DNA from: a virus
Taxonomy: Duplodnaviria > Heunggongvirae > Uroviricota > Caudoviricetes
Reading direction: 5' to 3' (one strand)
DNA: 44,609 nt
Virus record (IMG/VR): IMGVR_UViG_3300045988_011059
Location: 1 to 44,609 of that record
Shown: one piece after another, positions 13,989-42,244 of the stretch
Layout: each line of letters starts with the position of its first letter
Numbering within the stretch: position 1 is the first letter of the stretch
The notes under the pieces: model-generated
The model's database searches: none
The model's input: only the letters and a program-made list of their open reading frames with translations
What the model was told of the DNA's origin: nothing
Position numbers and translations under genes: made by a program

Positions 13989-14163
13989 ACTCACTTTTGA
14001 ATGGCATTTCATAGAAGTTAGTTAACTGGCCTCGATCACTTCGTTCTGTCATTTCTTTTGAGGCCTCCTCCTTGCTACCAACGGCGTAAATATCGACCCA
14101 CTCGTCCCATTCTTCGTCGAATACGCGGATTACATATATTGTTTTCATAATGTTTTCACGCAT
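13987..14163 (-). CDS. Hypothetical acidic small protein
   Basis: ORF track frame; start at ATG 14163 or 14148; last gene of the minus-strand cassette. Confidence 0.4.
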   Translation of the reverse strand: MRENIMKTIYVIRVFDEEWDEWVDIYAVGSKEEASKEMTERSDRGQLTNFYEMPFKSE

Positions 14164-14725
14164 TTGGGTAAATCCCCAGGATTCTATTAGCAATCGCAGC
14201 CGCTGTTAATGTAATCTCGCCCGGAACGACGGCGACGTCATGGTGCACTACCCCATCAATATCGTACAGATAACCACGGCTGTCATCCTCAAACGTATAG
14301 CCGTCACGATGAAGGCGAACGATTCTCACGTCATGACCCGCGGCGACGATAGGAGTCACTTCACTGGCGAATCCGCCATCAGACACTACAAAAACTTCGT
14401 TGCCGTCTGGCAAGTTTTCAGCAAGATACTTACCGAAATAATCATTGCCAAGTACAGGCTTAATGAATTGCTCCGAGATAGCAATCATGAACTGACGTCG
14501 CGACAACCCATTAAGGAAACATTCTGGCTTTTCTTTCCGTGCCCGGTCGTCGTAGCCGTCGAGAAACTCATGGTAAGCATCCGGACCTAACGCCGCCAAA
14601 GCAATATTGAACATTGGATTCTTGAAACTGGTAGTTCCTTTCGCAAAGCCCATTTCTACCAGTGCCATAGCAAGCGTGTCTTTCCCGCAACCCGCAGGAC
14701 CATTAAGAATAATTACCTTAGCCAT
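14156..14725 (-). CDS. P-loop nucleotide / polynucleotide kinase-like protein
   Basis: Walker A GPAGCGKDT near the N-terminus, like the G-x-GKDT P-loop of T4 dNMP kinase. Confidence 0.65.
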   Translation of the reverse strand: MAKVIILNGPAGCGKDTLAMALVEMGFAKGTTSFKNPMFNIALAALGPDAYHEFLDGYDDRARKEKPECFLNGLSRRQFMIAISEQFIKPVLGNDYFGKYLAENLPDGNEVFVVSDGGFASEVTPIVAAGHDVRIVRLHRDGYTFEDDSRGYLYDIDGVVHHDVAVVPGEITLTAAAIANRILGIYPNA

Positions 14726-15210
14726 TATTTATCGCTCCCATGTGGCTTTAAGTGTGAAGAGTTCCCGTTACAGTCATATTCGGTAACCGCGTGAGTGGTT
14801 ATGCCGAGTTCGCGGAAATGCTTTATTACCGCGGGAGAGTCGTCGAATGCGCACAAGATTCTTTCCAGCCCGATAGCACGTAGCACCTCTTCCTTAATTA
14901 CGATGTCTTTTCTGTTGTCGTGTTTGCTGCGCATGATTAACTGGTAAAATTCGACGCGGTGGCGCTGCAACCACATTCTTGTTTCTTTTTCCGCGTCATC
15001 ACTGCGGCCCGTTAAAATAACAACGGCGTAGCAGCGATTAAGGGCGTTACACAGTTCGATGTTATCTATAATTGGTTCATCATCTTTGCACGCCATGTTA
15101 AATGGTTTCCACGCCCAGGTTTCGCCGTAGTTATCTTTCGGCAGCAGGTGTAAACGATGAGTACCATCCGCCAATGTCCCGTCTAAATCGAAAATCACAA
15201 TATCTTTCAT
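14725..15210 (-). CDS. HAD-superfamily phosphatase, T4 Pnk phosphatase-domain-like
   Basis: N-terminal IVIFDLDGTLA (DxDGT), then LTGRS and RKD...KEE...DD motifs in the same order as the T4 polynucleotide kinase 3'-phosphatase domain. Confidence 0.7.
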   Translation of the reverse strand: MKDIVIFDLDGTLADGTHRLHLLPKDNYGETWAWKPFNMACKDDEPIIDNIELCNALNRCYAVVILTGRSDDAEKETRMWLQRHRVEFYQLIMRSKHDNRKDIVIKEEVLRAIGLERILCAFDDSPAVIKHFRELGITTHAVTEYDCNGNSSHLKPHGSDK

Positions 15211-16337
15211 CCCAGCATCTCCGGTGAAATAGTTAAACGTGCGACCTCGCCAAATTCGGCGCTATAAGTAATTACATTTGCGCTACGGCCCGACATCCAA
15301 CCTCCGCGGGAGGCGTAGGCGTCTTTAGCCGCTAAGGTGCGGTGTTGCTCAACAATCATGTTACGGCTTTCCACAATCTTCTGATGGTGCAGGTGTCCTA
15401 CATGGGCGTAGCTGTAAACACTCTCACCGAACGCTTTGCGGAACTTGGCGATCATAACCGGTTCGATAGCGTCGAAGCGTGCTTTATGTCCGTGGTGAAA
15501 GAACAGCGTCGTTTTGCCGTGTTGCACCATCTTGTAAACATCCGGTGACGTATCGACGAACACACGCGGCTCATTGTCATACAGCGTACTGAACATCTCA
15601 GCCAACCAAATCATGCCACTTTCGTCGTGATTCCCTTGCACGATAAGCAAGCGAACATTTTTATGCTTAACCAGCGCCATATCGACAACACGGCGGACCA
15701 TGCGAATCATGTAGCGGACAAGTTTCTGGTAACGGGTGTCGGCGTCAAGGGCGTGACCGCTTGCAGGTGTAACGGCAACCAGACTATCGAAGTGCGCGAA
15801 GTCGCCCAGCAGGTTAATAACCCCAGTCCCCGCATCCGGTGCTTTCTGAAACGCCGCGTCGAACCAGCGAGAGAACAGGTCTTCCGCAATCTTCATATCC
15901 CAGTCGTCGCCGCTCTCGTCGGCCCAGGCCAGCATACCGAGATGAAAATCGGATACAGTGTAAAGATTAAGCAGTTTATCGTCGCGTTTGGCTCGGGTTG
16001 CTTTAACAGGTGCAACCGGAGTAATCTCTGACTTCATGCCTTCGATTACGGCTTTCATCAACTCGACCTGACGTTCTGCGTCTGTGTCGGTCTTAACCCA
16101 TTGCAACTTAGTGTTGCCGAACTCGTCCACAAGTGACGACGTTCCTTTAATCTTGTAGCCATCTGGCACAAGGTGACTAACGTCGCGCCCGTGGCCTACG
16201 CCTTTCTTAGCCAGCTTCGCTTTACGGATGCGAATAACGCGGTCTGAGATGCCGTATTTACGGGCGATGTCGATATTCTTCATACCGGCGTTCAATTCTT
16301 CCTGCAACTGTTCGTCGGTTATTTTCTTCCTGGCCAT
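15207..16337 (-). CDS. Calcineurin-like metallophosphoesterase with N-terminal HTH
   Basis: Motifs D-x-H (SDFHLG), GD (LLGDFAH), GNHD (QGNHDE), GHxH (HHGH / GHLHH); N-terminal NIDIARKYGISDRVIRIRKA resembles an HTH. Confidence 0.7.
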   Translation of the reverse strand: MARKKITDEQLQEELNAGMKNIDIARKYGISDRVIRIRKAKLAKKGVGHGRDVSHLVPDGYKIKGTSSLVDEFGNTKLQWVKTDTDAERQVELMKAVIEGMKSEITPVAPVKATRAKRDDKLLNLYTVSDFHLGMLAWADESGDDWDMKIAEDLFSRWFDAAFQKAPDAGTGVINLLGDFAHFDSLVAVTPASGHALDADTRYQKLVRYMIRMVRRVVDMALVKHKNVRLLIVQGNHDESGMIWLAEMFSTLYDNEPRVFVDTSPDVYKMVQHGKTTLFFHHGHKARFDAIEPVMIAKFRKAFGESVYSYAHVGHLHHQKIVESRNMIVEQHRTLAAKDAYASRGGWMSGRSANVITYSAEFGEVARLTISPEMLG

Positions 16338-16401
16338 GCTTATTCCTCGTGCTTAGGATTTGTCCTATTTAACCACAGTGCATTCCTTTAAATAAAGGCG
16401 A

Positions 16402-16728
16402 CTATTTACTTTCTGCGCCTATTGCCCACCCAGTCATTACCATTTGCAGGCGGGTGGCGGTCAGTAGGCTGTAAACCGCGTCTCCGTTTTTCTCTACAGA
16501 ACGTATTACCGTGTATGTTACGGCTTGCGGAGGCAGGCCCGATTTACCAACCTCTACGGCTGCCTCACACTCGCGAACGGTAGAGTCCTTAAATGCCTTT
16601 ACAATAGTAGGGTCGGCTCTATCAAGCACACCAGAAGTCATAAGAACGGATTCACTAAACACCTGTTCACACGGAGACCCAAAAGTAGCAAAAGACATAA
16701 AACCAAGAGCTAACACTAATTTACGCAT
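16402..16728 (-). CDS. Secreted / periplasmic protein with signal peptide
   Basis: N-terminal MRKLVLALGFMSFATFG is a classic signal peptide; no lipobox. Confidence 0.6.
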   Translation of the reverse strand: MRKLVLALGFMSFATFGSPCEQVFSESVLMTSGVLDRADPTIVKAFKDSTVRECEAAVEVGKSGLPPQAVTYTVIRSVEKNGDAVYSLLTATRLQMVMTGWAIGAESK

Positions 16729-16756
16729 AATTATTTCCTCAGTAAGTTACAGGTGA

Positions 16757-16785
16757 ATAGTACCCTATTATATCGGGGTGTGCAA
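16757..16785 (-). promoter_or_regulatory. Early-type promoter TTGCAC-N17-TACTAT (minus strand)
   Basis: Reverse complement reads TTGCACACCCCGATATAATAGGGTACTATTCAC, near-identical over about 33 nt to the promoter at 39230-39258. Confidence 0.55.
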
Positions 16786-26763: not shown

Positions 26764-26901
26764 CTACTCTTCTGATAACTTCTCCAGTACATACGCCAGT
26801 TGCGCATTAGCGGCGTCTCGCTGTTGTCGTAGTCGTAGAACCTCTTCTTCGAGTTCTTTGATACGTTTTTGCAATGCCGGAATCGTGGATATGATGTTCA
26901 T
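26764..26901 (-). CDS. Hypothetical coiled-coil small protein (45 aa)
   Basis: Hand-translated; ATG overlaps the helicase stop (ATGA). Confidence 0.35.
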   Translation of the reverse strand: MNIISTIPALQKRIKELEEEVLRLRQQRDAANAQLAYVLEKLSEE

Positions 26902-28322
26902 TTCTTACTCCTTCTCTTCATATAATTAAGTAGTTCGTCCTGTACGGACCTTTTCTCGTCTGTACGCGCGGCGACAACTTCATCAAGAGTATCTCTGGCT
27001 ATTATTTGATAAATGAATACAGACCGTTTGTATCCAGATTGCATCTGCCTTACCGGGCCTATACGCTCGATAACCTGCAAATAATGTTCAAGGTTCCACC
27101 CCTGACTCATAAAGGCCATGTGGTGCCCGCCGTGTTGTAGCGACAGTCCGTGGCCTGCGGAGGCTGGGTGTATCAGGAGCATTGGTATTTCCCCGCGGTT
27201 CCACGCGTCCATCTGCTTATTACCCTTAGCGCCTTTAGAAAATGCCTGGGCCTGAGGGAATCGCTTAAGGATGCGCTCCAGTTCGTGCTTGAACTGATAC
27301 GCCACCAGTAACGGCGCACCCTGTAGCTCCTCAACAATTGACTCGAGTGCATCCAGTTTCGTGTCGTGCACTTTCTCCCAGTCTTTCGTTGCTTCACCAT
27401 CCGGCCCTGATACATACACGGCACCGGATGCGATCTGCAAGCACTTTGAGGTCTTCGCCGCGGCGTTAGCCGCTTCAACTTCTCCGCTCTCCAGTTCCGC
27501 GAATAACTTCTCCTCCATATCTATGTATGCCTGACGCGCTTTCTTCGGCAGGTCGATTTCAACCGGTACAATAATCGGCGCCTCGCAACCGAACCACTCG
27601 GCGGCGTCAATCGTGAGACTGATGTCCTTCATCTTCTGGTGAATTTCATTATCCGCACCAGGGCGGGCGTGGTATTCGCGCGCCATCGCCGACTTACCTT
27701 TCTGTACCGAGTTAAACCAGCGGTCCGTGAACGCTGTGTACGAAGAACCGAGGCGCTCACCCGCGTCGATAAACCAGTTCTGCCCCCACAAGTCTTTTAG
27801 TCCGTTTGGCGACGGCGTACCCGTCAGGTTGATGAAACGCTTAACCTTACCGAACGCAACCTTACTGAGCGCCTTCGCCCTCTTACTACCGCCTGAACGG
27901 CTGCGGAATGATTTCAGCTTCGTGCTTTCATCGGCGACAATAACCGTAAAAGGCCAGTCGTCTTTGCCGTAGTAGTCAATCAGCCACTCGATAACTTCGT
28001 AGTTGGTGCACACCACGTTAGCGTCAGACTCCAGCGCCGCGATGCGGCGCTTCTCTGAACCTGTTGCGTCTACAACATTCAGACACGGGAACCGCCATTT
28101 CTCTTGTTCTGCGGGCCACGTACCGGACGCAACTCGTAGCGGGGCAAGGATTAACACACGGTCGTCATCATTAAGTTGGCCGTTGCGGAACAGTCGGTTT
28201 AAAGCCCACAGTACGCTGCCAGTCTTCCCGGCACCCATGCTTGCCCATATGTTGCAGCGATGGTGCCGCAGCATGAACGAAGTCATGAGCTTCTGGTACT
28301 CTCGCCTTTGAAACTTAGACAT
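26898..28322 (-). CDS. SNF2-family helicase
   Basis: Walker A MGAGKTGS and DEAH-like DESTK motif; start at ATG 28322, not the track start. Confidence 0.8.
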   Translation of the reverse strand: MSKFQRREYQKLMTSFMLRHHRCNIWASMGAGKTGSVLWALNRLFRNGQLNDDDRVLILAPLRVASGTWPAEQEKWRFPCLNVVDATGSEKRRIAALESDANVVCTNYEVIEWLIDYYGKDDWPFTVIVADESTKLKSFRSRSGGSKRAKALSKVAFGKVKRFINLTGTPSPNGLKDLWGQNWFIDAGERLGSSYTAFTDRWFNSVQKGKSAMAREYHARPGADNEIHQKMKDISLTIDAAEWFGCEAPIIVPVEIDLPKKARQAYIDMEEKLFAELESGEVEAANAAAKTSKCLQIASGAVYVSGPDGEATKDWEKVHDTKLDALESIVEELQGAPLLVAYQFKHELERILKRFPQAQAFSKGAKGNKQMDAWNRGEIPMLLIHPASAGHGLSLQHGGHHMAFMSQGWNLEHYLQVIERIGPVRQMQSGYKRSVFIYQIIARDTLDEVVAARTDEKRSVQDELLNYMKRRSKK

Positions 28323-28998
28323 GATTAGCCTCGTAAACTGCTTTTGCGAAACCTCGCGGGGTGAGGCTGCGGATTGTTTTTGTTCTGGCGCTCTTGCCGC
28401 CCAGTTTAGCCCAGCCCGGATTATCTCCACTACCCGCGGCAACATCGGCAACGTCGGGCATAACAAACCCATTGCCCGCCCACAGGCACGTCTTTTTAAC
28501 ATAGGCATCTCGCGCTGGAATAACATCCGGAAACATTGGATGTGTGTCGTCTTCCGGTAGATAGCCGCCGTAATCGTGTGGGTCGAATACATAATCGGGC
28601 TTACGCCATAAAGATGAAAGAACGCTAACTGGGTTCTCAATCATATAAGGTACGTTGTACTTTTTAGCCAGACGCGCTGCCACTTTGCATGTAATCACGG
28701 CCTCTACCTGAAACGTTGGGTTCTTCTTGCGCTTAGCCTCGAAATGACGCGACCCACTAACGGCTAAATCTGTGCAAGGAGGGAACGCAAAAATAATATC
28801 CGGCGCGGCTTCGAAGTCGAATTTATTATCAATCCACGCGTTTATATAGTGGATGTTCTCGTGTTCAACCTTTGCACCCAATAGTGCGTAGTCGCCGTGG
28901 TCAGCGCCGTCGTAGTTGAAACAGTAGCAAGTATGGCCCGCTTCCGCCCACGGCTGGGCCATAAGGCCCGAACCGTCAAATAATGACCAGACAATCAT
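28315..28998 (-). CDS. DNA (cytosine-5)-methyltransferase-like protein, compact
   Basis: Motif I LFDGSG, motif IV PPCTD, motif VI ENP in canonical order; only 227 aa. Confidence 0.65.
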   Translation of the reverse strand: MIVWSLFDGSGLMAQPWAEAGHTCYCFNYDGADHGDYALLGAKVEHENIHYINAWIDNKFDFEAAPDIIFAFPPCTDLAVSGSRHFEAKRKKNPTFQVEAVITCKVAARLAKKYNVPYMIENPVSVLSSLWRKPDYVFDPHDYGGYLPEDDTHPMFPDVIPARDAYVKKTCLWAGNGFVMPDVADVAAGSGDNPGWAKLGGKSARTKTIRSLTPRGFAKAVYEANHV

Positions 28999-29186
28999 TT
29001 CAACACCAGAACTAACTCTTTACGCCCGAACGCCGTAATATTGCCGGTTACATCTTCGATAACCAGTTTACCGTTCGACTCGACGTACACCGTATCAACG
29101 GCAACAGGACGACGGGTCTTAACGTTGAAAATCATGTCGCCCGGTACGATGTCACGTGCTGGTTTGCGGTCATATTCGTGTTTCAT
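28995..29186 (-). CDS. Hypothetical protein (63 aa)
   Basis: ORF track; ATGA coupling. Confidence 0.5.
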   Translation of the reverse strand: MKHEYDRKPARDIVPGDMIFNVKTRRPVAVDTVYVESNGKLVIEDVTGNITAFGRKELVLVLK

Positions 29187-29206
29187 TTCTCAATTCCTTA
29201 TAGTTA

Positions 29207-29222
29207 AGGCCCCGAAGGGCCT
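29207..29222. terminator. GC-rich stem-loop between minus-strand genes
   Basis: AGGCCC-CGAA-GGGCCT hairpin. Confidence 0.35.
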
Positions 29223-29225
29223 GTA

Positions 29226-29480
29226 TTAGTTAGATAATTCTGCTTGAACTTGCTTAATAAGTTCCCCAGCCGTTGTGAAGTCTACCGACAGCCCTTTAGC
29301 GACGTCTTCTGCCAGCACTTTGCGGCCAACTGACCCGAAACCCAGGATACGGTTTACTTCCGAAACCTTCATAGACCATGAGTAATTAACTGACGCCCCT
29401 GTGTATTTACCGATACGAACAGATGAGTCGATTGAACCAATAATCATAGTGTTTACTGACAGTTGAAGTTCGATAGCCAT
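29226..29480 (-). CDS. Hypothetical protein (84 aa)
   Basis: ORF track. Confidence 0.5.
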   Translation of the reverse strand: MAIELQLSVNTMIIGSIDSSVRIGKYTGASVNYSWSMKVSEVNRILGFGSVGRKVLAEDVAKGLSVDFTTAGELIKQVQAELSN

Positions 29481-29481: not shown

Positions 29482-29799
29482 TTATAATTCCTTATATTGT
29501 TGGGGTATGTACTTACTATAATAGTCCGCTACTAGGGTGTCAACCTGTTTTATCGAACCAACTACAAAAACATTTGCGCCACGTTTACGCATCCGCTCGT
29601 GTTCCCGTAACTGGTGAGGGTCTGGCTTCGTGTTTTCGTCTTTCTTAACCTCGACGAACCAGACGATGCCGTTGGGGAGAATTACCAGCAGGTCGGGAGC
29701 GCCGGAACGTCCTTCGTAGGAAAGTTTACGAACGAGGCCGCCAATGGCCTCGAATCGGTCTTTTGCGTATTTCTGGATGCGCCCCTCAGGCGTACTCAT
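29482..29799 (-). CDS. VRR-NUC domain nuclease
   Basis: PD-(D/E)XK-type motif PDLLV...FVEVKK in a roughly 105-aa protein. Confidence 0.75.
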   Translation of the reverse strand: MSTPEGRIQKYAKDRFEAIGGLVRKLSYEGRSGAPDLLVILPNGIVWFVEVKKDENTKPDPHQLREHERMRKRGANVFVVGSIKQVDTLVADYYSKYIPQQYKEL

Positions 29800-32315: not shown

Positions 32316-32942
32316 TTAGCGGCGACGACGCTCGCGGCGTGGTGCTTCATCTTCTTCGTCATCTTCCAGGTCATCAACACTCGCGGCGACTTTAGAGCCC
32401 CCGAATGCTTTACCCTCACCAACGTACTTAATTGCCAGCAGGTTAACGCCGAGGACTTTGTATTTCTGGCTGAACCAGATTTCAACGCTTACGTTAGCCA
32501 CACAGCCGCTGTAAACCTGTTCGCCTTCAATCTGTTCGCCGTCTACATTGAAGTCCTGTTCTACCTGAGTCTCACCTTTTTTAGAGGTTACAATCAGCGG
32601 CTGTTTCTGTGCCTTCGCTTTGAAGTAGAAGCCCTCCGGGAAGTCTTCAAACGGATTGTCGCGCTCGGCAATGTCTTTAATCGCGCATTTATCCATGTGC
32701 TTACCTTCGCCGTAGTTGGACTTCATCCACTTCTCGGCAGCGGCTGCACCCAACGCTTCTTCAACTACAGCGTAGACAGTGTCGTATAGCGCGTCGATTT
32801 GAGCATGGTCAGACGGCAGGATAATAGTCGCGCTGTACTGCCCTTTAGTGATTGAGCCATCATCGTTTTCACGGTCTTTTTCACGTTCGAATACGTTAAC
32901 CCATGCAGTGTTTACTTTACGCAGATTCAGTTTCAGTCCCAT
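32316..32942 (-). CDS. Putative single-stranded DNA-binding protein
   Basis: 208-aa protein with acidic C-terminal tail (DDLEDDEEDE) next to the polymerase; family assignment by context. Confidence 0.45.
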   Translation of the reverse strand: MGLKLNLRKVNTAWVNVFEREKDRENDDGSITKGQYSATIILPSDHAQIDALYDTVYAVVEEALGAAAAEKWMKSNYGEGKHMDKCAIKDIAERDNPFEDFPEGFYFKAKAQKQPLIVTSKKGETQVEQDFNVDGEQIEGEQVYSGCVANVSVEIWFSQKYKVLGVNLLAIKYVGEGKAFGGSKVAASVDDLEDDEEDEAPRRERRRR

Positions 32943-32998: not shown

Positions 32999-33027
32999 AC
33001 TATAATAGCTAACTATTCAGGTGTCAA
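32999..33027 (-). promoter_or_regulatory. Sigma70-like promoter TTGACA-N17-TATAGT (minus strand)
   Basis: Reverse complement TTGACACCTGAATAGTTAGCTATTATAGTT; spacer carries the GAATAGT motif. Confidence 0.55.
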
Positions 33028-33031: not shown

Positions 33032-33205
33032 TTATTTAAGTTTCTTCGGAACTACCTTATAAATATAGGGCTGCACCGCCTCATGCTTCGAGTTCTTCTC
33101 TTCTGCAATTTTGTCGGCGTCGGCGCGTTTAGCGTGAACAGAAACAATATCAAGTTCTTGAATAGAATATCGGCGGTGATACCGCGTGAGAATATAAACC
33201 ATCAT
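33032..33205 (-). CDS. Hypothetical protein (57 aa)
   Basis: ORF track frame from ATG 33205 (ATGA overlap with the exonuclease stop). Confidence 0.45.
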   Translation of the reverse strand: MMVYILTRYHRRYSIQELDIVSVHAKRADADKIAEEKNSKHEAVQPYIYKVVPKKLK

Positions 33206-34443
33206 TCCAAATCCTCCTCTGTTACCTGATTCCACTCAGGACGCTTGTCGTCCGCCGTTGCAACACATGGTGCGCCAGGCTTACGGGTAATGAAGTCTTT
33301 TAGCTCCTCCTCCGGTATGACTTTAACCGCTTCGGTAGGTGACATGAGCACGTCTTTAGTCAGCTTGTAGCCGTATTTCTCGTATACCGCCTCAGCATCC
33401 TTCCACGCACGATTGCCCATCTTACCTTCAACCAGCTTGTACCCCGGCACTTTCTTACCGGAATGCAACGCGGCGGACATCGCTTTCTCGACCTTGTCGA
33501 TGTGCTGGCGCAACAATGGCAACTTCTCATACTCAGCTACGAGTTGCTCTGGTGTCAGTTCCAGCGCAAAGTCGTCTTCAAGTTCTTCCGCCAGCACCGC
33601 GTTAACGGTTTTTGTACGCGCGGCACACTGTTCCGAGAACCGGCACCACTGACAACCGTCTACTGACGGCTTGAAGTCAGATGCTTTCAGGTTCTTCTTG
33701 CCTCGGTAATACGCGTCAAGAGCTAACAGTGCGCGTTTCTGTGCAAACTTAGCGAACAGTTCCAGACCTTCAACCGAGATGTCCCACTCCGACGCACCGC
33801 CCGCGTACGGCTGAAAGATGACCAGGCGAACAACTGTGATGTTATAACGTCTCTTGAGTCGGCGATAAACACCGAGAGCGTAAAGCATAAGCTGCTTGTT
33901 TTCTTTCGCTTCAACACGATGCCGTCCAGTTTTAAGGTCGCCAATAATGAGCATGTGCTCGTCGGTGTTCGCCAGTTCCTGAACGGCAACAAGGTCGGCG
34001 GTTCCGAATGTCTCAACGCCTTCGTAGCCTGGATGCAATACCTCAGTAAGATTGACACGCATCTCGAGTTTGGCGTAAGTCGCTACATCGATAACAGCTT
34101 TGCAGTAGTCTGTGTACTTGCGCACCTGCTCAATCATGTCAGCCGTAATCAGTACCGCGCATTTCATCGGGCTGATTAGCGCCTTAATCTGGCCTTTACC
34201 CTCGTCCAGCACGTAAGCACCGACTTCACGCTCTAATGGTAGCGCAGTGCCGCGGATATAGGCGTTGAGATGTACCTCAGCTATGGTGTGCATAGCCGTA
34301 CCTAATACCGCGGCTTTACCGGACGTGTTAGGAATATCTTTTTCACAGGCCAGAGAAGCCGGGCAGGTTAACCACTTTTTAGCGCCTGACGGTGATAGTA
34401 ATGCGTGTACATCGTTATTGCCACCGCGTTCTTTTAGAATCAT
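33202..34443 (-). CDS. PD-(D/E)XK exonuclease with Cys4 cluster (Cas4/RecB-like)
   Basis: GTADLVAV...IGDLKTG...QLMLYALG nuclease core; N-terminal Cys and C-terminal CQWC...C cluster; start at ATG 34443. Confidence 0.75.
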   Translation of the reverse strand: MILKERGGNNDVHALLSPSGAKKWLTCPASLACEKDIPNTSGKAAVLGTAMHTIAEVHLNAYIRGTALPLEREVGAYVLDEGKGQIKALISPMKCAVLITADMIEQVRKYTDYCKAVIDVATYAKLEMRVNLTEVLHPGYEGVETFGTADLVAVQELANTDEHMLIIGDLKTGRHRVEAKENKQLMLYALGVYRRLKRRYNITVVRLVIFQPYAGGASEWDISVEGLELFAKFAQKRALLALDAYYRGKKNLKASDFKPSVDGCQWCRFSEQCAARTKTVNAVLAEELEDDFALELTPEQLVAEYEKLPLLRQHIDKVEKAMSAALHSGKKVPGYKLVEGKMGNRAWKDAEAVYEKYGYKLTKDVLMSPTEAVKVIPEEELKDFITRKPGAPCVATADDKRPEWNQVTEEDLE

Positions 34444-34712
34444 GCCCTGCTCTCCCACTGGTCAATTAAATGCCGTGTCTTATGCTCGCAGTGCATAGCC
34501 CAGCCATACATCGACTCAAAGACATAAAAGTCAGGTTTGGCGAAAGTCGTGCGCTTAATCTGCGACACATGACGGCCTATGTCTTTAGGCCGCGGTACTT
34601 TGCCTAAGTACGCCATCTCTTCCATCTGGTGTGCCTCTGACGGCGCACGCAATAACCATAGCGCCTCTGTGTTATCTCGCCTGTCTACGGCGCGGTAGAG
34701 TTGGTAAATCAT
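34440..34712 (-). CDS. Hypothetical protein (90 aa)
   Basis: ORF track; overlapping starts and stops. Confidence 0.5.
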   Translation of the reverse strand: MIYQLYRAVDRRDNTEALWLLRAPSEAHQMEEMAYLGKVPRPKDIGRHVSQIKRTTFAKPDFYVFESMYGWAMHCEHKTRHLIDQWESRA

Positions 34713-34996
34713 TGCGCCTTCTCCCGCATTTTCAGAAAGACAATCATAGCGGCGCGTAGGGGGTTTTCGTGCGTACTTTTGGTGAAAGATGCAGAGTGGT
34801 ACGCGCGATATGTAAACGTATGCCGGTTAGCCGTAACGCATTCAATTGATATGTGATTATCAATTATTATGGGCCATGCATCAGATGGGTTGTTGCAGTA
34901 GTCTTTGGCCTTAAACGAATTCAATCCTGAAATTTGCATAACCTCTGCGTGTACACAGCAGTTAATCTCAAAATCGCTCATATCTTCGTATTTCAT
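34709..34996 (-). CDS. Hypothetical protein (95 aa)
   Basis: ORF track. Confidence 0.5.
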   Translation of the reverse strand: MKYEDMSDFEINCCVHAEVMQISGLNSFKAKDYCNNPSDAWPIIIDNHISIECVTANRHTFTYRAYHSASFTKSTHENPLRAAMIVFLKMREKAQ

Positions 34997-35039
34997 ATTT
35001 CCGACCCTCAGTTAAAGCGGCCCGAAGGCCGCAAGATAG

Positions 35040-35537
35040 TTATTCTTCTTCGAAATACTTGTTCTTGATTGCCGTCAGGCGTTCCAGATATTCAGCCAGG
35101 TCTTCGTCTTTAATCGCGGCAATCTTCATTTTCTTACCGGTGAACTCTTCCAGTAGTTCATCAGAATCGTCGCACGCGGCGTCGCTCGGACCTTCGTTAA
35201 TGGCGTCGTCGATAGCCTGAATCTGGTCACGCAGAGACTGATAATCGACTTCTTCTTTCTCTTCTTCCGGCTCTGGCGTAGGTTCCTCTACTTTAGCTTT
35301 ACGCGGCTTGCGTTTTGGCTTCTCTTCTTCTGCCGGTTTAGTGTCTACGAGGTCTTCACCTTCGACCGGGATTTCTTTTGTTTCTTCGGCTTTTACAACG
35401 GCACGAACTACGTCGGCTTTAGTCTCTGCGGGTAACCCATCTACTTCGGAAACGACAACTTGTTTCGCGCTATTCGCAGCAATAAGTTCATGTGCAACTA
35501 CGAAACGTTCCAGTAATACTAAGAATTTCTCTAACAT
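35040..35537 (-). CDS. Highly acidic protein, possibly disordered
   Basis: 165 aa with long Glu/Asp/Pro/Lys-rich tracts; promoter-proximal in the leftward operon. Confidence 0.55.
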   Translation of the reverse strand: MLEKFLVLLERFVVAHELIAANSAKQVVVSEVDGLPAETKADVVRAVVKAEETKEIPVEGEDLVDTKPAEEEKPKRKPRKAKVEEPTPEPEEEKEEVDYQSLRDQIQAIDDAINEGPSDAACDDSDELLEEFTGKKMKIAAIKDEDLAEYLERLTAIKNKYFEEE

Positions 35538-35740: not shown

Positions 35741-35769
35741 ACTATAATAGCGAACTATTCACGTGTCAA
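35741..35769 (-). promoter_or_regulatory. Sigma70-like promoter TTGACA-N17-TATAGT (minus strand)
   Basis: Reverse complement TTGACACGTGAATAGTTCGCTATTATAGTT; near-identical to the promoter at 32999-33027. Confidence 0.55.
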
Positions 35770-35833
35770 TGGGCTTTTCTAAAATAATTAATATGGTACT
35801 ATTCACATATCAACTGACTAAGGAGTAAATGAC

Positions 35834-36049
35834 ATGCAACCATCTGAACTAGGTATCCGCGTAGAACAACGCCGTAAAGAACTCGGCATCTCCCAGCGCC
35901 GTCTGGCGGTCCTGGCTGGCGTTTCCCAGGGCGCGATTAACCAGCTTGCGCTCGGGGTAACTCAGGACGTCCGACCGGCGACGCTGTTCAAGCTGGCGGA
36001 AGTGCTACAAGTAGACGCCAAGTGGCTGGCGTTCGGTGAAGGGGCTTAA
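35834..36049 (+). CDS. XRE-family helix-turn-helix regulator (Cro/CI-like)
   Basis: GISQRRLAVLAGVSQGAINQL is a canonical HTH; AAGGAG RBS; only plus-strand gene inside the leftward block. Confidence 0.8.
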   Translation: MQPSELGIRVEQRRKELGISQRRLAVLAGVSQGAINQLALGVTQDVRPATLFKLAEVLQVDAKWLAFGEGA

Positions 36050-36064: not shown

Positions 36065-36066
36065 AC

Positions 36067-38334
36067 TTATTCCAAATCATCCTCGGTCACCACCAGCATT
36101 TCATTCGGTTCGTATAGTGTCTTCGGAATCTTGTTATCCGTTATCCGGGTATTCAGCCTGTAACGGCCTGGTATTATCTGATTGTTTTCGTCGGTCCCTG
36201 GCACAAGATACCCCGCCTCAACCATTTTCTTAATCTTCCCGCGTTCTATGGCTTCTTTGGAGTTAAACGCCTTTGCGTTAGGGTCGGACTGTGCGAGCTT
36301 ATTCGCTGCGGCTACCGTGATGCCCTCGTTGCCGTTGTAGGTTCCTTCCGCCAGTTCAAACGCCGCCAGTATCGTGGCTTCTGAACTGTTGACGGCGTTC
36401 TCTACGGTTTTACGTACGTTTTCTTTACCTTCCTTCGTCAGTCCTTCTTCCCGCTCTTTCTCCTCGTCAGTCTTAAACGGCTCGAAGCCCCACGGCATCA
36501 GCACAAGCGCCTTGTGTGGCTCAGGCAGGTCCAGGTTTACGATTGTGCCGTATTCCTCTGTGCTACCCAGGAACTCAACTGCACGGTACTCTTTCGGCGG
36601 CGGGGCTTCACGGAACTGTACCGACTCCAGAACCATGCCAACTGTCTTCTGTTGTGGCCCGTGCTTAAATTTCGAGTGATATACGTTTATCTGACGGTCG
36701 GTAGCGCGTTCAATTGTCAGTTCCACGTCGACGCCAGCGTACAGCGCCCCACTACCACGGGCTTTCTTTCCGCCCTTCGGTGTGTGGTGGACAACACCTA
36801 CCGCGGCTTTAGTCGCATCACGTACTTCTTTCAGGATGGCGATAACTTTACCCATACCGATTGCCGTTGATGAGCTGTTCTCGTCGAACTTATCAATCGT
36901 CAGGGCCAGCGTCTGGTTAAGGGTGTCGAACGCAACCATGCCGATTGGCTCGTCGCCAGCAGTTTCGCGCATTAACTTAATCAGGCTTTTAAGTTTTCCG
37001 ACCTCACCCATGTCTATGACATGTACATAATCTTTACCCTCCACGCCGTATTTAGCCGCGAGCGCATCAATACGTGTACGTGTGGCCGCGCCGCCCTCAC
37101 CGTCTATATAGAAATGGTGGCAACGCTGGGTGTCCGCCCCCGCGAACCGGTATCCGGCGGCGCTGAGGTACATCATCCCCAGCGTATAAAACGATTTGTA
37201 CGTGCCAGATTCCCCGACGATATCCCAGATACAATCCGACGGCATGTACCCTTCGACGACGAAATCAGCCTTTACCGGTTCTGGTAACTCGTCCTCCTCT
37301 GAGTCCTCGTCGTCTTCCAGGTCGTCGAGACTGCATGAAACAGATTCACGTGCACCCCAGCCGATTGCCTCGGCTACTTCACTGAACGGCAGACCAGTCG
37401 CATCGCACGCGTATTTCCACACCTCTTTCGGCGACATGCCTTCGGTTGCCGTAATGTCGGTGTCGTGAATCATGGTTACGTTCGGCGCTTCGTACCCCTC
37501 TCGCGGGAAACACAGCAGAAAGTCATCCGGGCGCGGCGTCGGGTCGCTGTAGTTCTCTGCGTGTTCCGGTGTAGCTGGCATCTTAAGGCCGCGCGGTGTC
37601 ATGATGCCGCCGTACTCGAACGCCAGTGCTTCGAACGCATCTGTAAACGCGGTGCGCAGTTCTTCTGGTATCTGGTAATCCGATGCGCTGCTAACGTCAA
37701 CGGCGGGGATGCCTTCCAGTAATTCGTCCGGGTCAATCAGGTCGTTGCGGCGCGACCAGATAACATGAGAGCCAACTGGCGGCAGGTACATCGGCTGCGA
37801 CAGAGTGAACCCGCTGCGGTCCGCGCCCATGCCTTTGAAGAAGTGCTCAAGCAACCCATGACGAACACGGATGATGTCGCCGACTTCAACCGGACGGGCC
37901 AGCGGCATGACGACGCGAAAGCGCGGGGACTCGTCGGTATGTGATGCCGTGGTATAGAGGCACATCGCACGGCGGCTTCGCTTAACCAGACGCACCGCTT
38001 CCTGATACTCTTCCGGCGTTGCGCTGTCGAAGTCCAGATACGCCAGCGACGATTTGCTTACAGATGCGTCGCAGCGATAGAAAAAGCCTTTACGCGCTTG
38101 CTTAAAGTCACCGGTTTCCGGGTCTTTCACGGTGCTGTGTGTAGAGTCACACGCGGCGGTGATATAGCCGGGCGCTGTCTTCGGGTTAATCCCATCACGA
38201 ACAGCATCAAGCGGCTGGATTAACGCTTTCAGGTCGTCCAGTGTTGCCGTGTGTGTGGTTCTGACGTTTATATCCTTTTTCTCTGCTCGCGCGTTGCGGC
38301 GTGACCACGAGTAGGATAAAATTACATCGGACAT
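36067..38334 (-). CDS. Primase-helicase (primase/polymerase N-domain plus RecA-like ATPase)
   Basis: Walker A GESGTYKSF and Walker B MVAFD in the central domain; 755 aa; AAGGA RBS. Confidence 0.8.
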   Translation of the reverse strand: MSDVILSYSWSRRNARAEKKDINVRTTHTATLDDLKALIQPLDAVRDGINPKTAPGYITAACDSTHSTVKDPETGDFKQARKGFFYRCDASVSKSSLAYLDFDSATPEEYQEAVRLVKRSRRAMCLYTTASHTDESPRFRVVMPLARPVEVGDIIRVRHGLLEHFFKGMGADRSGFTLSQPMYLPPVGSHVIWSRRNDLIDPDELLEGIPAVDVSSASDYQIPEELRTAFTDAFEALAFEYGGIMTPRGLKMPATPEHAENYSDPTPRPDDFLLCFPREGYEAPNVTMIHDTDITATEGMSPKEVWKYACDATGLPFSEVAEAIGWGARESVSCSLDDLEDDEDSEEDELPEPVKADFVVEGYMPSDCIWDIVGESGTYKSFYTLGMMYLSAAGYRFAGADTQRCHHFYIDGEGGAATRTRIDALAAKYGVEGKDYVHVIDMGEVGKLKSLIKLMRETAGDEPIGMVAFDTLNQTLALTIDKFDENSSSTAIGMGKVIAILKEVRDATKAAVGVVHHTPKGGKKARGSGALYAGVDVELTIERATDRQINVYHSKFKHGPQQKTVGMVLESVQFREAPPPKEYRAVEFLGSTEEYGTIVNLDLPEPHKALVLMPWGFEPFKTDEEKEREEGLTKEGKENVRKTVENAVNSSEATILAAFELAEGTYNGNEGITVAAANKLAQSDPNAKAFNSKEAIERGKIKKMVEAGYLVPGTDENNQIIPGRYRLNTRITDNKIPKTLYEPNEMLVVTEDDLE

Positions 38335-38392
38335 ATTATAATTCCTTCAGCAAGTAATTTGGCCTCGGCGTTCACCGCGTCGGGGCTTTCTT

Positions 38393-38626
38393 TTATTCCA
38401 GGTCTTCTAAAGTAGCGGTCATTCCGCGAACTTCAGCAACAGCACTATATTTCCCACCAACATTTTTCACGACACCAGATTTAACCAGCACCTTCAACGA
38501 CCCTTCAATAATGGCGGAACTATAGTACCTAAAATAACTACGACGCAAGTCCATAACGCTGCACGACCCTTTTTTACGTGTTAGCGAAACGACAGCCGTA
38601 AATACCCGGGACTGGAACTCGGTCAT
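38393..38626 (-). CDS. Hypothetical protein (77 aa)
   Basis: ORF track; ATGA-coupled to the upstream HTH gene. Confidence 0.5.
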   Translation of the reverse strand: MTEFQSRVFTAVVSLTRKKGSCSVMDLRRSYFRYYSSAIIEGSLKVLVKSGVVKNVGGKYSAVAEVRGMTATLEDLE

Positions 38627-38793
38627 TTTACATTCTCCTTAATCCACGCTTCCACTTTCTCCGGGTCAAACGTACCTGGCTGCCGGCGGCCCATAATGCG
38701 GGTACAACAATCAGGGAACTTCCCACTCTTTAACCAGTTATTAAGCGTACGACGAGTAACCCCAATACGCTCAGCTACCTCATTCTGCGTCAT
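38623..38793 (-). CDS. Small HTH DNA-binding protein (AlpA/excisionase-like)
   Basis: MTQNEVAERIGVTRRTLNNWLKSGKFP HTH; ATG 38793 lies downstream of the predicted promoter, the track TTG start does not. Confidence 0.6.
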   Translation of the reverse strand: MTQNEVAERIGVTRRTLNNWLKSGKFPDCCTRIMGRRQPGTFDPEKVEAWIKENVK

Positions 38794-38825
38794 TCTCAAA
38801 CCCTCATTATCAGTTAACGAAACCA

Positions 38826-38854
38826 AGTATACATTGCGAATAATGGGAAATCAA
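38826..38854 (-). promoter_or_regulatory. Sigma70-like promoter TTGATT-N17-TATACT (minus strand)
   Basis: Read on the reverse complement; sits just upstream of the first leftward gene. Confidence 0.5.
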
Positions 38855-39150
38855 ACATAATCGCACCTATTGACATTATGAAAATCTTCGTTTAAGGTGC
38901 TTCTATATCTTAGTTACTTTGATTCCTGTTCACCTTGTAATACCCGCTTGAAACGCAGCGGCGCACCAGCGCCAGCGAAGTGTTAAGCGGCAGATTACTG
39001 AACATAAGAATTATCGTAACTTTCCTTCCTTAGTATCTCCGGTTGCCCTGGGCAAGCTCTATTCTCATCGGCAGCATATCTCTTAAGTATATGATAATTA
39101 AAAGTTTCTATAGTTGCCGTAAGCAAGGTAGAGAGTACTTCACTCCGCTG

Positions 39151-39170
39151 GGGTGGGCTAACGCCCACCC
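39151..39170. other. Perfect GC-rich hairpin GGGTGGGC-TAAC-GCCCACCC
   Basis: 8-bp inverted repeat read directly, inside the 465-bp divergent control region. Confidence 0.6.
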
Positions 39171-39229
39171 ACTGCGTTGCGTACTCTTTTAAGAAACGAA
39201 CGAATCACAACGGCAACGTAACTATTCTC

Positions 39230-39258
39230 TTGCACACCCCAACATAATAGGATACTAT
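39230..39258 (+). promoter_or_regulatory. Early-type promoter TTGCAC-N17-TACTAT
   Basis: TTGCAC 39230-39235, TACTAT 39253-39258; flanked by ACTATTC motifs. Confidence 0.55.
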
Positions 39259-39292
39259 TCACTTATCGAAACGAGACATAAGGAATTTAGAA

Positions 39293-39511
39293 ATGAACAA
39301 AGCGACCGCAAGCGTAGTTTCCGCAATAAAAGAAGTTTACGGCATCGATATCTCAGAGCGAGTAATCATCGGGAACAAACGAAACTTCTTTACGTTCGAC
39401 ACCGACGGAATGGATGAAAATGATTTTATTAACGTACAACGTTTCGCCAACGGTAAAGGGCTTCGTAACGAGCCTGCGGGTTACAAGAAATTCGCTATCT
39501 ACTTTAAATAA
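39293..39511 (+). CDS. Hypothetical protein (72 aa)
   Basis: ORF track; AAGGA RBS; AT-rich. Confidence 0.6.
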   Translation: MNKATASVVSAIKEVYGIDISERVIIGNKRNFFTFDTDGMDENDFINVQRFANGKGLRNEPAGYKKFAIYFK

Positions 39512-39529
39512 GACAGAGGGGTGAGGGTT

Positions 39530-39709
39530 ATGTTTAAGCACGGTCAGTTGGTTAAAACGAAAGACTGCGGGTACGGCGTCATTGTGCGAGGTTCTAAAAT
39601 ACCAGGGAGATATTTTTTGACTAATCCGTACTGGGATTTTGATATGTGGTTTTACGAGTACGAGCTAACACTCATCGGCAACAATTTTAAATTCAAAGGG
39701 GCAAAGTGA
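39530..39709 (+). CDS. Hypothetical protein (59 aa)
   Basis: ORF track frame from ATG 39530 after a GAGGGGTGAGGG RBS. Confidence 0.5.
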   Translation: MFKHGQLVKTKDCGYGVIVRGSKIPGRYFLTNPYWDFDMWFYEYELTLIGNNFKFKGAK

Positions 39710-39942
39710 TGCAAATCATAATTACAGATAACACCGTTACCTATGAAACAGCTAACGATACTCTGGAAAGCATAGGCGTAAATATTGGCGATGTTTTTGA
39801 TGTGCTGGACTCCTGCGAGTACGGCTGGTGGATTAAGGTCAGGCATTACAAAGTGCCAGTAACTAAGGCCGAAGCGGAAATATACACAACGGCATCGAAT
39901 CATGATGCTCGTGCCGACGACTCCGAGGGAGGTTGCCGTTAA
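39709..39942 (+). CDS. Hypothetical protein (77 aa)
   Basis: ORF track frame; ATG 39709 overlaps the upstream stop. Confidence 0.5.
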   Translation: MQIIITDNTVTYETANDTLESIGVNIGDVFDVLDSCEYGWWIKVRHYKVPVTKAEAEIYTTASNHDARADDSEGGCR

Positions 39943-40199
39943 TGAATAATACTGAACTGAAAACAGTAGCGGAATATAACCGTAAAATACGGGTCATGCG
40001 TCGGGGTGCGGGGCTGGAGCAGTTCTATAACATGTGGCGCATTGCGACGCGCGACCCTGAGTTTCTTCAGACAGGTTATTATTCCATTAAAGGCATTATC
40101 CCGATTCGTGCACGTAAGGATTATGGTTGGGTTCGTGAGACCCCTAATCTTTTGTGGTGCTGGTATTGTGGTGAATTCTGGGTAAAGGTTAAGGACTAA
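39942..40199 (+). CDS. Hypothetical protein (85 aa)
   Basis: ORF track frame from ATG 39942 (TAATG overlap). Confidence 0.5.
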   Translation: MNNTELKTVAEYNRKIRVMRRGAGLEQFYNMWRIATRDPEFLQTGYYSIKGIIPIRARKDYGWVRETPNLLWCWYCGEFWVKVKD

Positions 40200-40202
40200 G
40201 TT

Positions 40203-40346
40203 ATGAGAGAAGCATTTGAACGGTGGGCCGTCGTCGAGGGTCTGCCGGTTAACAAGGGTTCTAAGAAAGAGTACCTTAACGTTAAGACACGTCTCGCGTG
40301 GCGGGCGTGGAAAGCTGGTGTGCAATATGCGATGAATACGAGGTGA
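40203..40346 (+). CDS. Hypothetical small protein (47 aa)
   Basis: Hand-translated; AAGGA RBS. Confidence 0.35.
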   Translation: MREAFERWAVVEGLPVNKGSKKEYLNVKTRLAWRAWKAGVQYAMNTR

Positions 40347-40349
40347 GAT

Positions 40350-40655
40350 ATGAGCGAAGAACTTAAAGCATTTTATAAAGCCTACGCTGCGTGGCTCGAT
40401 GCTGGTGCGGTTAACAATGGCGTATTCACATGTTGCACCGGACTATGTTTCGCATTGCATAAGTGGGCAGGTGATAAAGGTTACAACCTCCGCGCTCTGC
40501 GCCTGGAGTTGAAAGCACAGTTTACCAACGCTGGGTTAGATTCGGGCTACCCGTTTAACCACGGCGAACCTAACTATGACGTCGAGTGCGATGATGGAAC
40601 AATCCACCTAAATCCGGCACGCATCGCCTGGGTACGTAAACACGCGACTGATTGA
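40350..40655 (+). CDS. Hypothetical protein (101 aa)
   Basis: ORF track; GAGGTGA RBS. Confidence 0.55.
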   Translation: MSEELKAFYKAYAAWLDAGAVNNGVFTCCTGLCFALHKWAGDKGYNLRALRLELKAQFTNAGLDSGYPFNHGEPNYDVECDDGTIHLNPARIAWVRKHATD

Positions 40656-40725
40656 TACGTATAACACACTGGATGCCGTTACCCGAGCCGCTGGAAGTGT
40701 GATGTTCAATAGTTTGGGATTTTAC

Positions 40726-40763
40726 TGAGTGACTTACGCTGCTACACAGCAGCGTATCATTTT
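40726..40763 (+). terminator. Rho-independent terminator
   Basis: ACGCTGCT-ACAC-AGCAGCGT hairpin followed by a T-rich run. Confidence 0.6.
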
Positions 40764-40826
40764 TCTCATTTTTGTTCTATTTCACCAAACGCAACAATCG
40801 AAGAGACTATTGCAGGAGATGCAACA

Positions 40827-41000
40827 ATGATTACTAAAGAACAGGCCGAACGACTAATCACGTTAATTGACACGATGATTGATGTAAAAACCGATTTAGC
40901 AACGGCAACAGAGGAGTCCGCTACCTGGTCACTTGAGGAAAGAGAAGCAGAAGCGGAGCGCGCGTTACTGGCGTTCATCGACTCTATAACACACCAATAA
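40827..41000 (+). CDS. Hypothetical small protein (57 aa)
   Basis: Hand-translated; strong AGGAG RBS 8 nt upstream; preferred over the antisense track ORF 40766..40978. Confidence 0.45.
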   Translation: MITKEQAERLITLIDTMIDVKTDLATATEESATWSLEEREAEAERALLAFIDSITHQ

Positions 41001-41007
41001 AATTTAC

Positions 41008-41036
41008 TTGCACGCTGAAATAGAATAGGCTACTAT
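41008..41036 (+). promoter_or_regulatory. Early-type promoter TTGCAC-N17-TACTAT
   Basis: TTGCAC 41008-41013, TACTAT 41031-41036; same architecture as 39230-39258. Confidence 0.55.
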
Positions 41037-41067
41037 TCATTTACACAGACGAGAGGAGAGACAGAAG

Positions 41068-41286
41068 ATGTTCCTGGAATGCAAATCCCACGATGACTAT
41101 TGGGTGCTGACTAAAAACGACTTATACCATCTCAAAGAAGACGGCGACGAGAGCCGCTGCTACGTAATAGACGACAACGGCACTGAACTTGATGTCTACT
41201 ACGCGGGGTATGGTCGATGGGCGCTATCCGCAGACGATGACTTTGTGTTCGAAGAATATAATGGGGAGGAACCAGAAGATGAGTAA
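41068..41286 (+). CDS. Hypothetical acidic protein (72 aa)
   Basis: ORF track; GAGAGGAGAG RBS. Confidence 0.55.
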   Translation: MFLECKSHDDYWVLTKNDLYHLKEDGDESRCYVIDDNGTELDVYYAGYGRWALSADDDFVFEEYNGEEPEDE

Positions 41287-41971
41287 CAAAAACGAAGTAT
41301 TCGAGTACCTGATTGACCAACTACGGCAGCAGCTACCGGTCGCAGATGTAATGGGTGAAATTAAACGGTGGAGTATCGACCGTAGTATTGCTGGTCGCGG
41401 TAACTATACCGACGAGGAAAATGCCGTAATCGATGCCTACATCGGCCTGGAGCACAACCAGTACAAGCAACAGTGCGAAGACCTGGCGCATGAGGTGCAG
41501 TCACTTAAGAATCAGTTACGTGATGCGTCGGCGCAGATTAAGGAGTTGCGGGAAGACAACATTAAGAAATCTGAGCACATATCGCACCTGACAGGGCAAT
41601 CGTCAGCATATCGCGGCGATGCGTTGCGCTTTCAAGCGCAAGTTGATGACCTGGTAAAACGACTGGCTACCGGTGACGTGGAGGCGTACAAACTTATCCG
41701 TAAAGGTGCGCTTGGCACTGAGAAATCCGGTTGCCGTAAAGAAGATACCCAGGAATGTGACCACAATTGGCTTATCGCTCCAGGATTGTTTATCGCCGAA
41801 GGCCACAAGGGCAACGTGCCCGGTAGTCTGTTTTGCTGCGAATGCGGTGCGCGTGAGTGGGATGACCCGGAGTATGAGCCGAAAGCCTATACGCAGAAAT
41901 GCAAACATGAGTGGGAATATTATTACCCCAACGGGCGGCGTTGTACCAAATGCGGGGTGATAAACTTATGA
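41279..41971 (+). CDS. Coiled-coil protein with C-terminal Cys/His zinc-ribbon-like cluster
   Basis: ORF track frame from ATG 41279; central coiled coil; C-terminal CDHNW...CCECG...CKHEW...CTKCG. Confidence 0.55.
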   Translation: MSNKNEVFEYLIDQLRQQLPVADVMGEIKRWSIDRSIAGRGNYTDEENAVIDAYIGLEHNQYKQQCEDLAHEVQSLKNQLRDASAQIKELREDNIKKSEHISHLTGQSSAYRGDALRFQAQVDDLVKRLATGDVEAYKLIRKGALGTEKSGCRKEDTQECDHNWLIAPGLFIAEGHKGNVPGSLFCCECGAREWDDPEYEPKAYTQKCKHEWEYYYPNGRRCTKCGVINL

Positions 41972-42244
41972 CCAGCATCCTCTTTATCTGGGTACTGTCC
42001 GCAGGCCAGATGCACCTCGCGGCATCAGAAACGTTTTACTCTATGGAGGCGTGGTGATGATTAAACTATTCGACTGGCGTACACTGCCGCCGGAGGCCTG
42101 ATATAGCGGCGAGTATGTGCGCGTGCGGTACTCTGATTTAATGGCTCTCGAAGCCGAGTTACAGAAATACAAAGACCAGTTCCCGGATTACGTCGAGTGC
42201 GCGAACTGTGGGTCGGTTACACATGTGGAAGGGGTGGAGTGATT

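Follow-up and report, generated by a model that had tools for sequence, protein, structure and literature searches.

A symmetric AATAG-N4-CTATT element on seven predicted promoters of a Kagunavirus-type phage genome, a candidate operator for a 434-Cro-like protein

Introduction

The intergenic DNA ahead of the small plus-strand genes that begin at 39293 carries a predicted promoter whose -10 region is covered by a short inverted repeat (39246..39259), and a preliminary description of the sequence had taken this repeat for one of eight intergenic members of a promoter/operator family. We examined what the repeated unit is, at how many sites it occurs, and whether it is better read as a part of the promoter or as the binding site of a regulatory protein.

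The window, by which we mean the whole stretch of 44,609 bases that was analysed, is a complete genome of the Kagunavirus type (Guernseyvirinae; virulent E. coli siphophage). Its bases 1-89 are repeated exactly at 44521-44609, most likely as the overlap left by circular assembly, which leaves a unique genome length of 44,520 bp. The best-matching phages over window positions 30000-42000, including K1ind2, K1ind3 and phiWAO78-1, cover 70-79% of this region at 88-91% identity, and the annotated relatives have the same gene order as the window. Kagunavirus relatives have been described as strictly lytic (PMC9825357; PMC7203180), and no integrase is annotated in the related genomes that were examined. 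The Guernseyvirinae (Kagunavirus, Jerseyvirus) are widely isolated and have been proposed for therapy and food safety, and their transcription programme is essentially unstudied.

The dyad and its enrichment

The unit behind the repeated 8-mer ACTATTCA is the dyad AATAG-N4-CTATT. The 8-mer is present six times in the genome against 1.24 expected, at 16754-16761 (minus strand), 33012, 35754, 35798-35805, 39254 and 41032; four of these positions (33012, 35754, 39254 and 41032) had been given correctly, and those listed as 16757-16770 and 35804-35811 were slightly off. In a census of all 5-mer dyads with gaps of 0 to 8, AATAG-N4-CTATT ranked first, above the terminator hairpins. The enrichment against shuffled sequence held: five exact copies (16756, 33004, 35746, 39246 and 41024) compare with none in 60 dinucleotide-preserving shuffles, where the highest count for any dyad was three. 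With up to one mismatch allowed there were 11 matches against 0.99 expected, and 0 of 100 shuffles reached 11. Two of the promoter sites, 29520 and 35790, carry one mismatch. Alignment of the copies by their dyads gives the element a direction, ATAATAG-N3-ACTATTCA, and its extended form reads TGAATAG-N4-CTATTAT.

Four of the 11 matches (27/44547, 5657 and 7285) are not members, which leaves seven real sites, all intergenic, in place of the eight first claimed. The match at 27/44547, a single site lying in the terminal duplicate, was rejected as it overlaps the -35 of another promoter, has ACTAG as its left half in every relative, and has no dyad at the corresponding place in Jerseyvirus; the one-mismatch matches at 5657 and 7285 were rejected as well. 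The ACTATTC at 39221 is present as had been noted, but it is without a partner half-site, varies among relatives, and does not belong to the family.

Two further copies proposed earlier belong to something else. The 14-bp palindrome ACTATTCGAATAGT exists, at 7277-7290 and not 7275-7288, and GAATAGTTG was correctly placed at 8033-8041; neither has the AATAG-N4-CTATT arrangement, and both were rejected as dyad members, being parts of a separate late-region GGAATA/TATTCC element that is kept in Cornellvirus without the AATAG dyad. Repeats of this late motif occupy two intergenic regions among the head genes (7236-7318 and 8022-8072). The first cluster, at 7236-7284 upstream of the spanin gene, consists of ATTATTCCAGTTATTCC ... 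GGAATAAACTATTCG (GAATA-N3-TATTC) followed by TTGACT-N17-TAAGCT; the second, at 8022-8072 upstream of the scaffold gene, reads GGAATATTCTGGAATAGTTGCCTT-N6-TGGAATAATTTATTCTTGACA and has no obvious -10. Since the late motif is common to Kagunavirus, Jerseyvirus and Cornellvirus, where it is conserved, it may be the binding site of a late-gene activator. The ACTATTCGAATAGT palindrome itself is not retained in SETP7 or SP-031, and we take GGAATATTCT to resemble an RcsAB box.

Placement of the seven sites on predicted promoters

All seven dyads overlap predicted sigma-70-type core promoters, which share roughly 8-11 of the 12 consensus bases. Three lie over the -10 of predicted TTGCAC-N17-TACTAT promoters, as the preliminary description had it (16785..16757, minus; 39230..39258, plus; 41008..41036, plus), and all three are exact. 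On the minus strand, AATAGTACCCTATT at 16756..16769 covers a promoter with its -35 TTGCAC at 16785..16780 and its -10 TACTAT at 16762..16757, upstream of genes 16728..14156 (an unknown 108-aa protein, a DNA-repair exonuclease, a polynucleotide kinase and a kinase-like protein); this dyad is conserved in K1G, EF2-1, Bas73 and the Jerseyvirus RA140. On the plus strand, AATAGGATACTATT at 39246..39259, the locus flagged at the outset, lies over TTGCAC (39230..39235)-N17-TACTAT (39253..39258) ahead of small genes at 39293..40655, a unit that ends at the terminator 40735-40756, and AATAGGCTACTATT at 41024..41037 lies over TTGCAC (41008..41013)-N17-TACTAT (41031..41036) ahead of the plus-strand genes from 41068 onward.

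Three more sites, all on the minus strand, fall in the spacers of predicted TTGACA-N17-TATAGT promoters, two of which had been described (33027..32999 and 35769..35741) and the third overlooked (29543..29515). The dyad AATAGCTAACTATT at 33004..33017 is exact and lies between TTGACA (33027..33022) and TATAGT (33004..32999), upstream of an SSB-like gene (32942..32316; Pfam Enc34_ssDNA-bd) and the DNA polymerase gene, in a unit that starts from 32942. The equally exact AATAGCGAACTATT at 35746..35759 lies between TTGACA (35769..35764) and TATAGT (35746..35741), upstream of genes 35537..33202 that encode unknown ORFs and a PD-(D/E)XK exonuclease. The overlooked site, AATAGTCCGCTACT (written in plus-strand letters) at 29520..29533, has one mismatch and lies between TTGACA (29543..29538) and TATAGT (29520..29515), upstream of small ORFs, a Dcm methylase and a helicase (29480..26764); among 30 distinct sequences from relatives, 28 have a perfect dyad at the orthologous position.

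The seventh dyad, AATATGGTACTATT at 35790..35803 on the plus strand, is imperfect, with AATAT as its left half, and overlaps the extended -10 TGgTACTAT (35794..35802) of a gene for a Cro-like protein whose promoter stands back-to-back with the 35746 promoter; the two dyads are 44 bp apart, centre to centre. The imperfect AATAT is fixed in 36 of 36 orthologues, and this dyad is a candidate weak autoregulatory operator of the Cro-like gene.

The register of the dyad differs between classes. In the TTGCAC class it points in the direction of transcription and spans -19 to -6 (centre about -12.5), so that its right half makes up most of the -10 hexamer; in the TTGACA class it has the opposite orientation and spans -25 to -12 (centre about -18.5), within the spacer and abutting the -10; on the Cro-like gene's own promoter it again covers the -10 hexamer, with its centre at about -12.5. 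One directional 18-bp element is thus found sense at -12.5 and antisense at -18.5. Different registers and orientations relative to the -35 and -10, including a third one of about -15.5 in the Jerseyvirus SETP7, make the dyad a module separate from both hexamers, and its location upstream of the predicted transcript starts at all seven sites means that it acts as DNA, not as part of a transcript. An Rfam scan of the window gave no match. Bidirectional promoters were rejected as the source of the symmetry, as the opposite strands have the -10-like TATTAT and TATAAT but no usable -35.

Two predicted promoters are without a full dyad. One, TTGATT-N17-TATACT (38854..38826), serves the helicase-primase operon. 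The other, TTGACT-N17-TATATC at 44552-44580 (also at 32-60), follows a terminator at about 44505-44530 and holds a CTATT half-site alone; relatives have the better -10 TATATT, from which the window differs by a T-to-C change that weakens the hexamer.

Three further observations were made near these promoters. A hairpin, CCGGG-N6-CCCGG (32971-32986), lies in the minus-strand 5' leader between the 33004 promoter and the start of the SSB-like gene; Jerseyvirus conserves it, a recognisable form is present in Cornellvirus, and it may be a regulatory leader structure. The non-coding stretch at 38827-39229, between the divergent helicase-primase and early promoters, is unusually long (~400 bp), is without an Rfam match and includes a GC-rich hairpin at 39151-39170; either a replication origin or a small RNA could lie there. 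A degenerate dyad, AATAGTTTGGGATT, lies at 40708-40721 upstream of the 40735-40756 terminator. About nine relatives have a perfect AATAG-N4-CTATT at this place, just before the early-operon terminator and with no recognisable -35, which could be a roadblock site or a promoter remnant.

Conservation within and across genera

Orthologous sites were gathered by BLAST and not by motif from 37 related loci, giving 27-36 distinct sequences per site. Thirty-six IMG/VR loci that encode the same HTH_3 protein (78-100% identical) carry the dyad at orthologous promoters. Across the BLAST-collected orthologues the minor-allele fraction was 0-0.07 in the half-site columns and up to 0.33 in the central four, with 3-8 central variants per site; at 35746 neither half-site varied among 36 distinct orthologues, in which six variants of the central 4 bp occurred. 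Spacer bases that are not read by RNA polymerase are conserved too, TGAATAG in one class and ATAATAG in the other. Promoter regions are highly conserved as wholes within the genus, which makes half-site conservation there weakly discriminating. The few half-site variants within the genus all fell at position 2, with the regulator unchanged.

In Jerseyvirus SETP7 the dyad was again top-ranked, in the form TAATAG-N4-CTATTA, and the copy in the third register lies within TTGCAT-N17-TATTAT. AATAG-N4-CTATT is absent from Cornellvirus SP-031 and St162, where the orthologous promoters instead have TATTAG-N4-GTAATA or TATTAT-N4-CTAATA together with mixed forms (a shifted version, TATTA-N6-TAATA). This change is symmetric, affecting both halves, and the -10 that the dyad overlaps is TAATAT instead of TACTAT. 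A scan of viral contigs for TGAATAG-N4-CTATTAT found more than one copy only in contigs of Kagunavirus size, several of them identified as Kagunavirus relatives; other contigs had single matches, consistent with chance.

An additional TTGCAC-type promoter with the dyad was seen on the minus strand of Bas73 (locus L044, ~5140-5180) and of RA140 (locus L045, ~10620-10660). Each adjoins the late motif and drives an inserted gene that is missing from the window, which suggests that the promoter-operator unit travels with acquired genes.

We considered if these sites need a regulator at all. They might all descend from one or two ancestral promoter cassettes, their sequence being retained because it tunes the binding of RNA polymerase through spacer shape and contacts at the -10 and discriminator, with the palindrome incidental. 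In favour of this, CTATT shares bases with the -10 TACTAT in one class and is adjacent to TATAGT in the other, whole promoter regions are highly conserved within the genus, and in two relatives a further complete promoter of the class, dyad included, drives an inserted gene. Against it, polymerase contacts do not explain three registers and both orientations, symmetric half-sites stay fixed while the centre drifts, the Cornellvirus halves change jointly, and the dyad before the 40735 terminator is perfect in about nine relatives with no recognisable -35 there. We regard this explanation as improbable. The mobility of register and orientation, the symmetric halves with a drifting centre and the joint Cornellvirus change fit the site of a symmetric dimer, not a plain part of a promoter. 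Taken with the two-fold symmetry itself and the conservation across genera, they make a dimeric-regulator site superimposed on promoters, and a genome-wide regulon, the reading that the sequence supports best, much as the preliminary description had suggested, although 7277, 8033 and 39221 drop out of that regulon.

Candidate binding proteins

Both helix-turn-helix genes that had been named as possible regulators (35834..36049 and 38623..38793) exist, matching Pfam HTH_3 and HTH_17, respectively.

The plus-strand gene at 35834..36049 encodes a 71-aa HTH_3 (Cro/CI-type) protein (E 1.2e-12; 48.1 bits against a cut-off of 23), whose closest solved relative by phmmer is phage 434 Cro, also 71 aa (residues 6-68, E 4.9e-7). 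No other candidate regulator identified here is shared by the three genera; its identity is 93-100% in Kagunavirus, about 52% in Jerseyvirus and about 40% in Cornellvirus. The gene diverges from a dyad-bearing promoter and has the conserved weaker site on its own. Inspection of the neighbouring genes revealed no CI-like gene beside 35834, the divergent genes being replication genes or of unknown function; a divergent cI, tripartite operators and an integrase, which define a lambdoid immunity region, are not a feature of the window. 434 Cro binds 14-bp operators in which the outer bases are conserved and the centre is variable. Operators of the Cro/CI type are two-fold symmetric over about 14-18 bp, with conserved halves and a weaker centre, and overlap core promoter elements so that binding keeps RNA polymerase out; the sites described here have the same symmetry and conservation pattern and overlap the core elements of predicted promoters. 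Parsimony (one homologous binder in three genera), the match to the geometry of the family, and the divergent, apparently autoregulated gene favour the Cro-like protein, which we therefore consider the probable binder, if by a modest measure.

The recognition helices read SQGAINQ in Kagunavirus, SQSLITH in Jerseyvirus and TQSAISH in Cornellvirus; the Kagunavirus and Jerseyvirus dyads are the same though their helices differ, and the Jerseyvirus helix is closer to that of Cornellvirus, whose dyad differs. Across lineages, then, the 40% identical Cornellvirus protein goes with a shifted dyad, whereas Kagunavirus and Jerseyvirus have the dyad in common despite different helices. A homology search for relatives of the Cro-like protein outside the Guernseyvirinae returned only relatives at 77-100% identity, and a contig scan for it yielded, apart from one Jersey-like contaminant, remote homologues at 44% identity or less, with unrelated upstream dyads at the five loci checked.

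The dyad could instead be an operator bound by the second protein, the 56-aa HTH_17 (excisionase/AlpA-like) product of the minus-strand gene 38623..38793 (30.9 bits against a cut-off of 27). This gene is the first of the helicase-primase operon, and its predicted promoter (TTGATT 38854..38849, TATACT 38831..38826) is the one noted above to be without the dyad. The distribution of the protein follows the AATAG dyad exactly, and as well as or better than that of the Cro-like protein: it occurs in Kagunavirus and Jerseyvirus and is missing from Cornellvirus, which has a different dyad. It reaches 80% identity or more in 422 of the 443 matching records, all of Kagunavirus or Jerseyvirus types, and half-sites that hardly vary are more in keeping with a protein so well conserved than with the Cro-like protein at 52% identity. 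Its homologue in K1B4 (gene 008) is, moreover, one of four genes that peak inside the 30-min latent period. Against this, small proteins of the HTH_17/excisionase type usually recognise direct repeats or asymmetric sites and not 14-bp palindromes, and do so as monomers or in head-to-tail arrays; the location beside the primase-helicase suggests a role in replication; and Cornellvirus keeps dyads of like geometry at orthologous promoters though the HTH_17 protein is missing, so that a second, unrelated binder would be needed there. No solved relative of the protein was found by sequence. We judge it an unlikely binder.

A host transcription factor common to E. coli and Salmonella would account for identical dyads in Kagunavirus (on E. 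coli) and Jerseyvirus (on Salmonella) despite the divergence of their Cro-like proteins, but Cornellvirus, also on Salmonella, has a different dyad at the orthologous promoters. No E. coli factor is known to recognise AATAG-N4-CTATT; the ATAG/CTAT halves of OxyR and MntR sites have other spacings. A host factor seems to us very unlikely.

The published assignment can hardly be right: the seven "phage promoters" that PHIRE found in the Kagunavirus fBC-Eco01 (tgAATAGTa-ccTATTat-T) were ascribed to a phage RNA polymerase (PMC9825357), but PHIRE detects repeated motifs only, no RNA polymerase gene is annotated in any related genome examined, and the sites coincide with ordinary sigma-70 -35/-10 pairs with 17-bp spacers (TTGACA/TTGCAC-N17-TAnnnT) and not with promoters of a single-subunit phage polymerase.

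A model for early and replication gene control

Our reading is that AATAG-N4-CTATT is the operator of a phage dimeric helix-turn-helix repressor, most likely the 434-Cro-like 71-aa protein, placed on seven sigma-70-type promoters; on the sequence evidence we give this a probability of about 0.55. A dimer at -12.5 or -18.5, lying over the core promoter, would block RNA polymerase. The regulator would be made from its own promoter, which bears an operator that appears deliberately imperfect, and, as it accumulated, would turn down the early and replication units and lastly its own gene. Under its control would come the small early genes at 39293-40655 and from 41068 on, the genes for repair and kinase functions at 16728-14156, and three units for replication: 35537-33202, the unit from 32942 that includes SSB and polymerase, and the unit from 29480 that includes methylase and helicase. 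The structural genes, having a different upstream motif, would escape the repressor.

The only time-course RNA-seq for a Kagunavirus, that of K1B4, has the DNA polymerase and methylase genes peaking late, which is not an obvious fit to their early shut-off; sampling ran to 120 min against a latent period of 30 min, which makes its expression classes unreliable, and we rejected this data set for timing the promoters because it extends far beyond one infection cycle.

It is possible, and we put it forward tentatively as a rather doubtful extension, that in a strictly virulent subfamily of siphophages all early and replication genes are governed by a Cro-only circuit without CI, that a portable promoter-operator cassette wires in new genes, and that the specificity of the regulator and the -10 hexamers (TACTAT in Kagunavirus and Jerseyvirus, TAATAT in Cornellvirus) shifted together between genera.

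Comparison with known systems

The motif itself is already published. Seven PHIRE promoters were reported also for the Kagunavirus VB_EcoS-Golestan (PMC7203180), and these and the fBC-Eco01 promoters are the same element as the dyad, at seven copies per genome. Neither report (PMC9825357; PMC7203180) mentions dyad symmetry, the overlap with sigma-70 hexamers or a link to the Cro-like protein, and the operator reading appears to be new; placed on host-type promoters, it would correct the assignment to a phage polymerase. It offers a simple, testable model for the control of early and replication genes, with two candidate regulators and exact target fragments named. It proposes no new mechanism, extending a familiar Cro-operator logic, an ordinary kind of phage gene control, to a virulent lineage.

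The nearest parallel is Cro of phages 434, lambda and P22 acting at OR and OL. 434 Cro and the 35834-36049 protein are both small, single-domain HTH_3 proteins of 71 aa, similar in sequence (E 4.9e-7). In both settings the operators, putative ones here, are 14 bp long, vary at the centre but not in their outer bases, and overlap the -35 and -10 of early promoters, and the gene diverges from a promoter that carries one. Cro turns down PL and PR in lytic growth of lambda or 434, and the protein here may have the like role of lowering early transcription during lytic growth. Unlike 434 and lambda, the window has no CI partner, no tripartite OR/OL and no lysogeny module, the phage being virulent. 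Unlike 434 as well, each of seven promoters, distributed along about 25 kb, has a single putative operator, and the half-site is TAATAG/GAATAG as opposed to ACAA.

In having many short conserved sites genome-wide, over or near promoters, the arrangement also resembles the sites of P1 C1, the inverted repeats of phiC31 and the stoperators of L5 gp71. P1 C1, the phiC31 repressor and mycobacteriophage L5 gp71 serve immunity and the maintenance of lysogeny in temperate phages, and the sites of P1 and L5 lack symmetry, whereas those of the window are symmetric and belong to a virulent phage.
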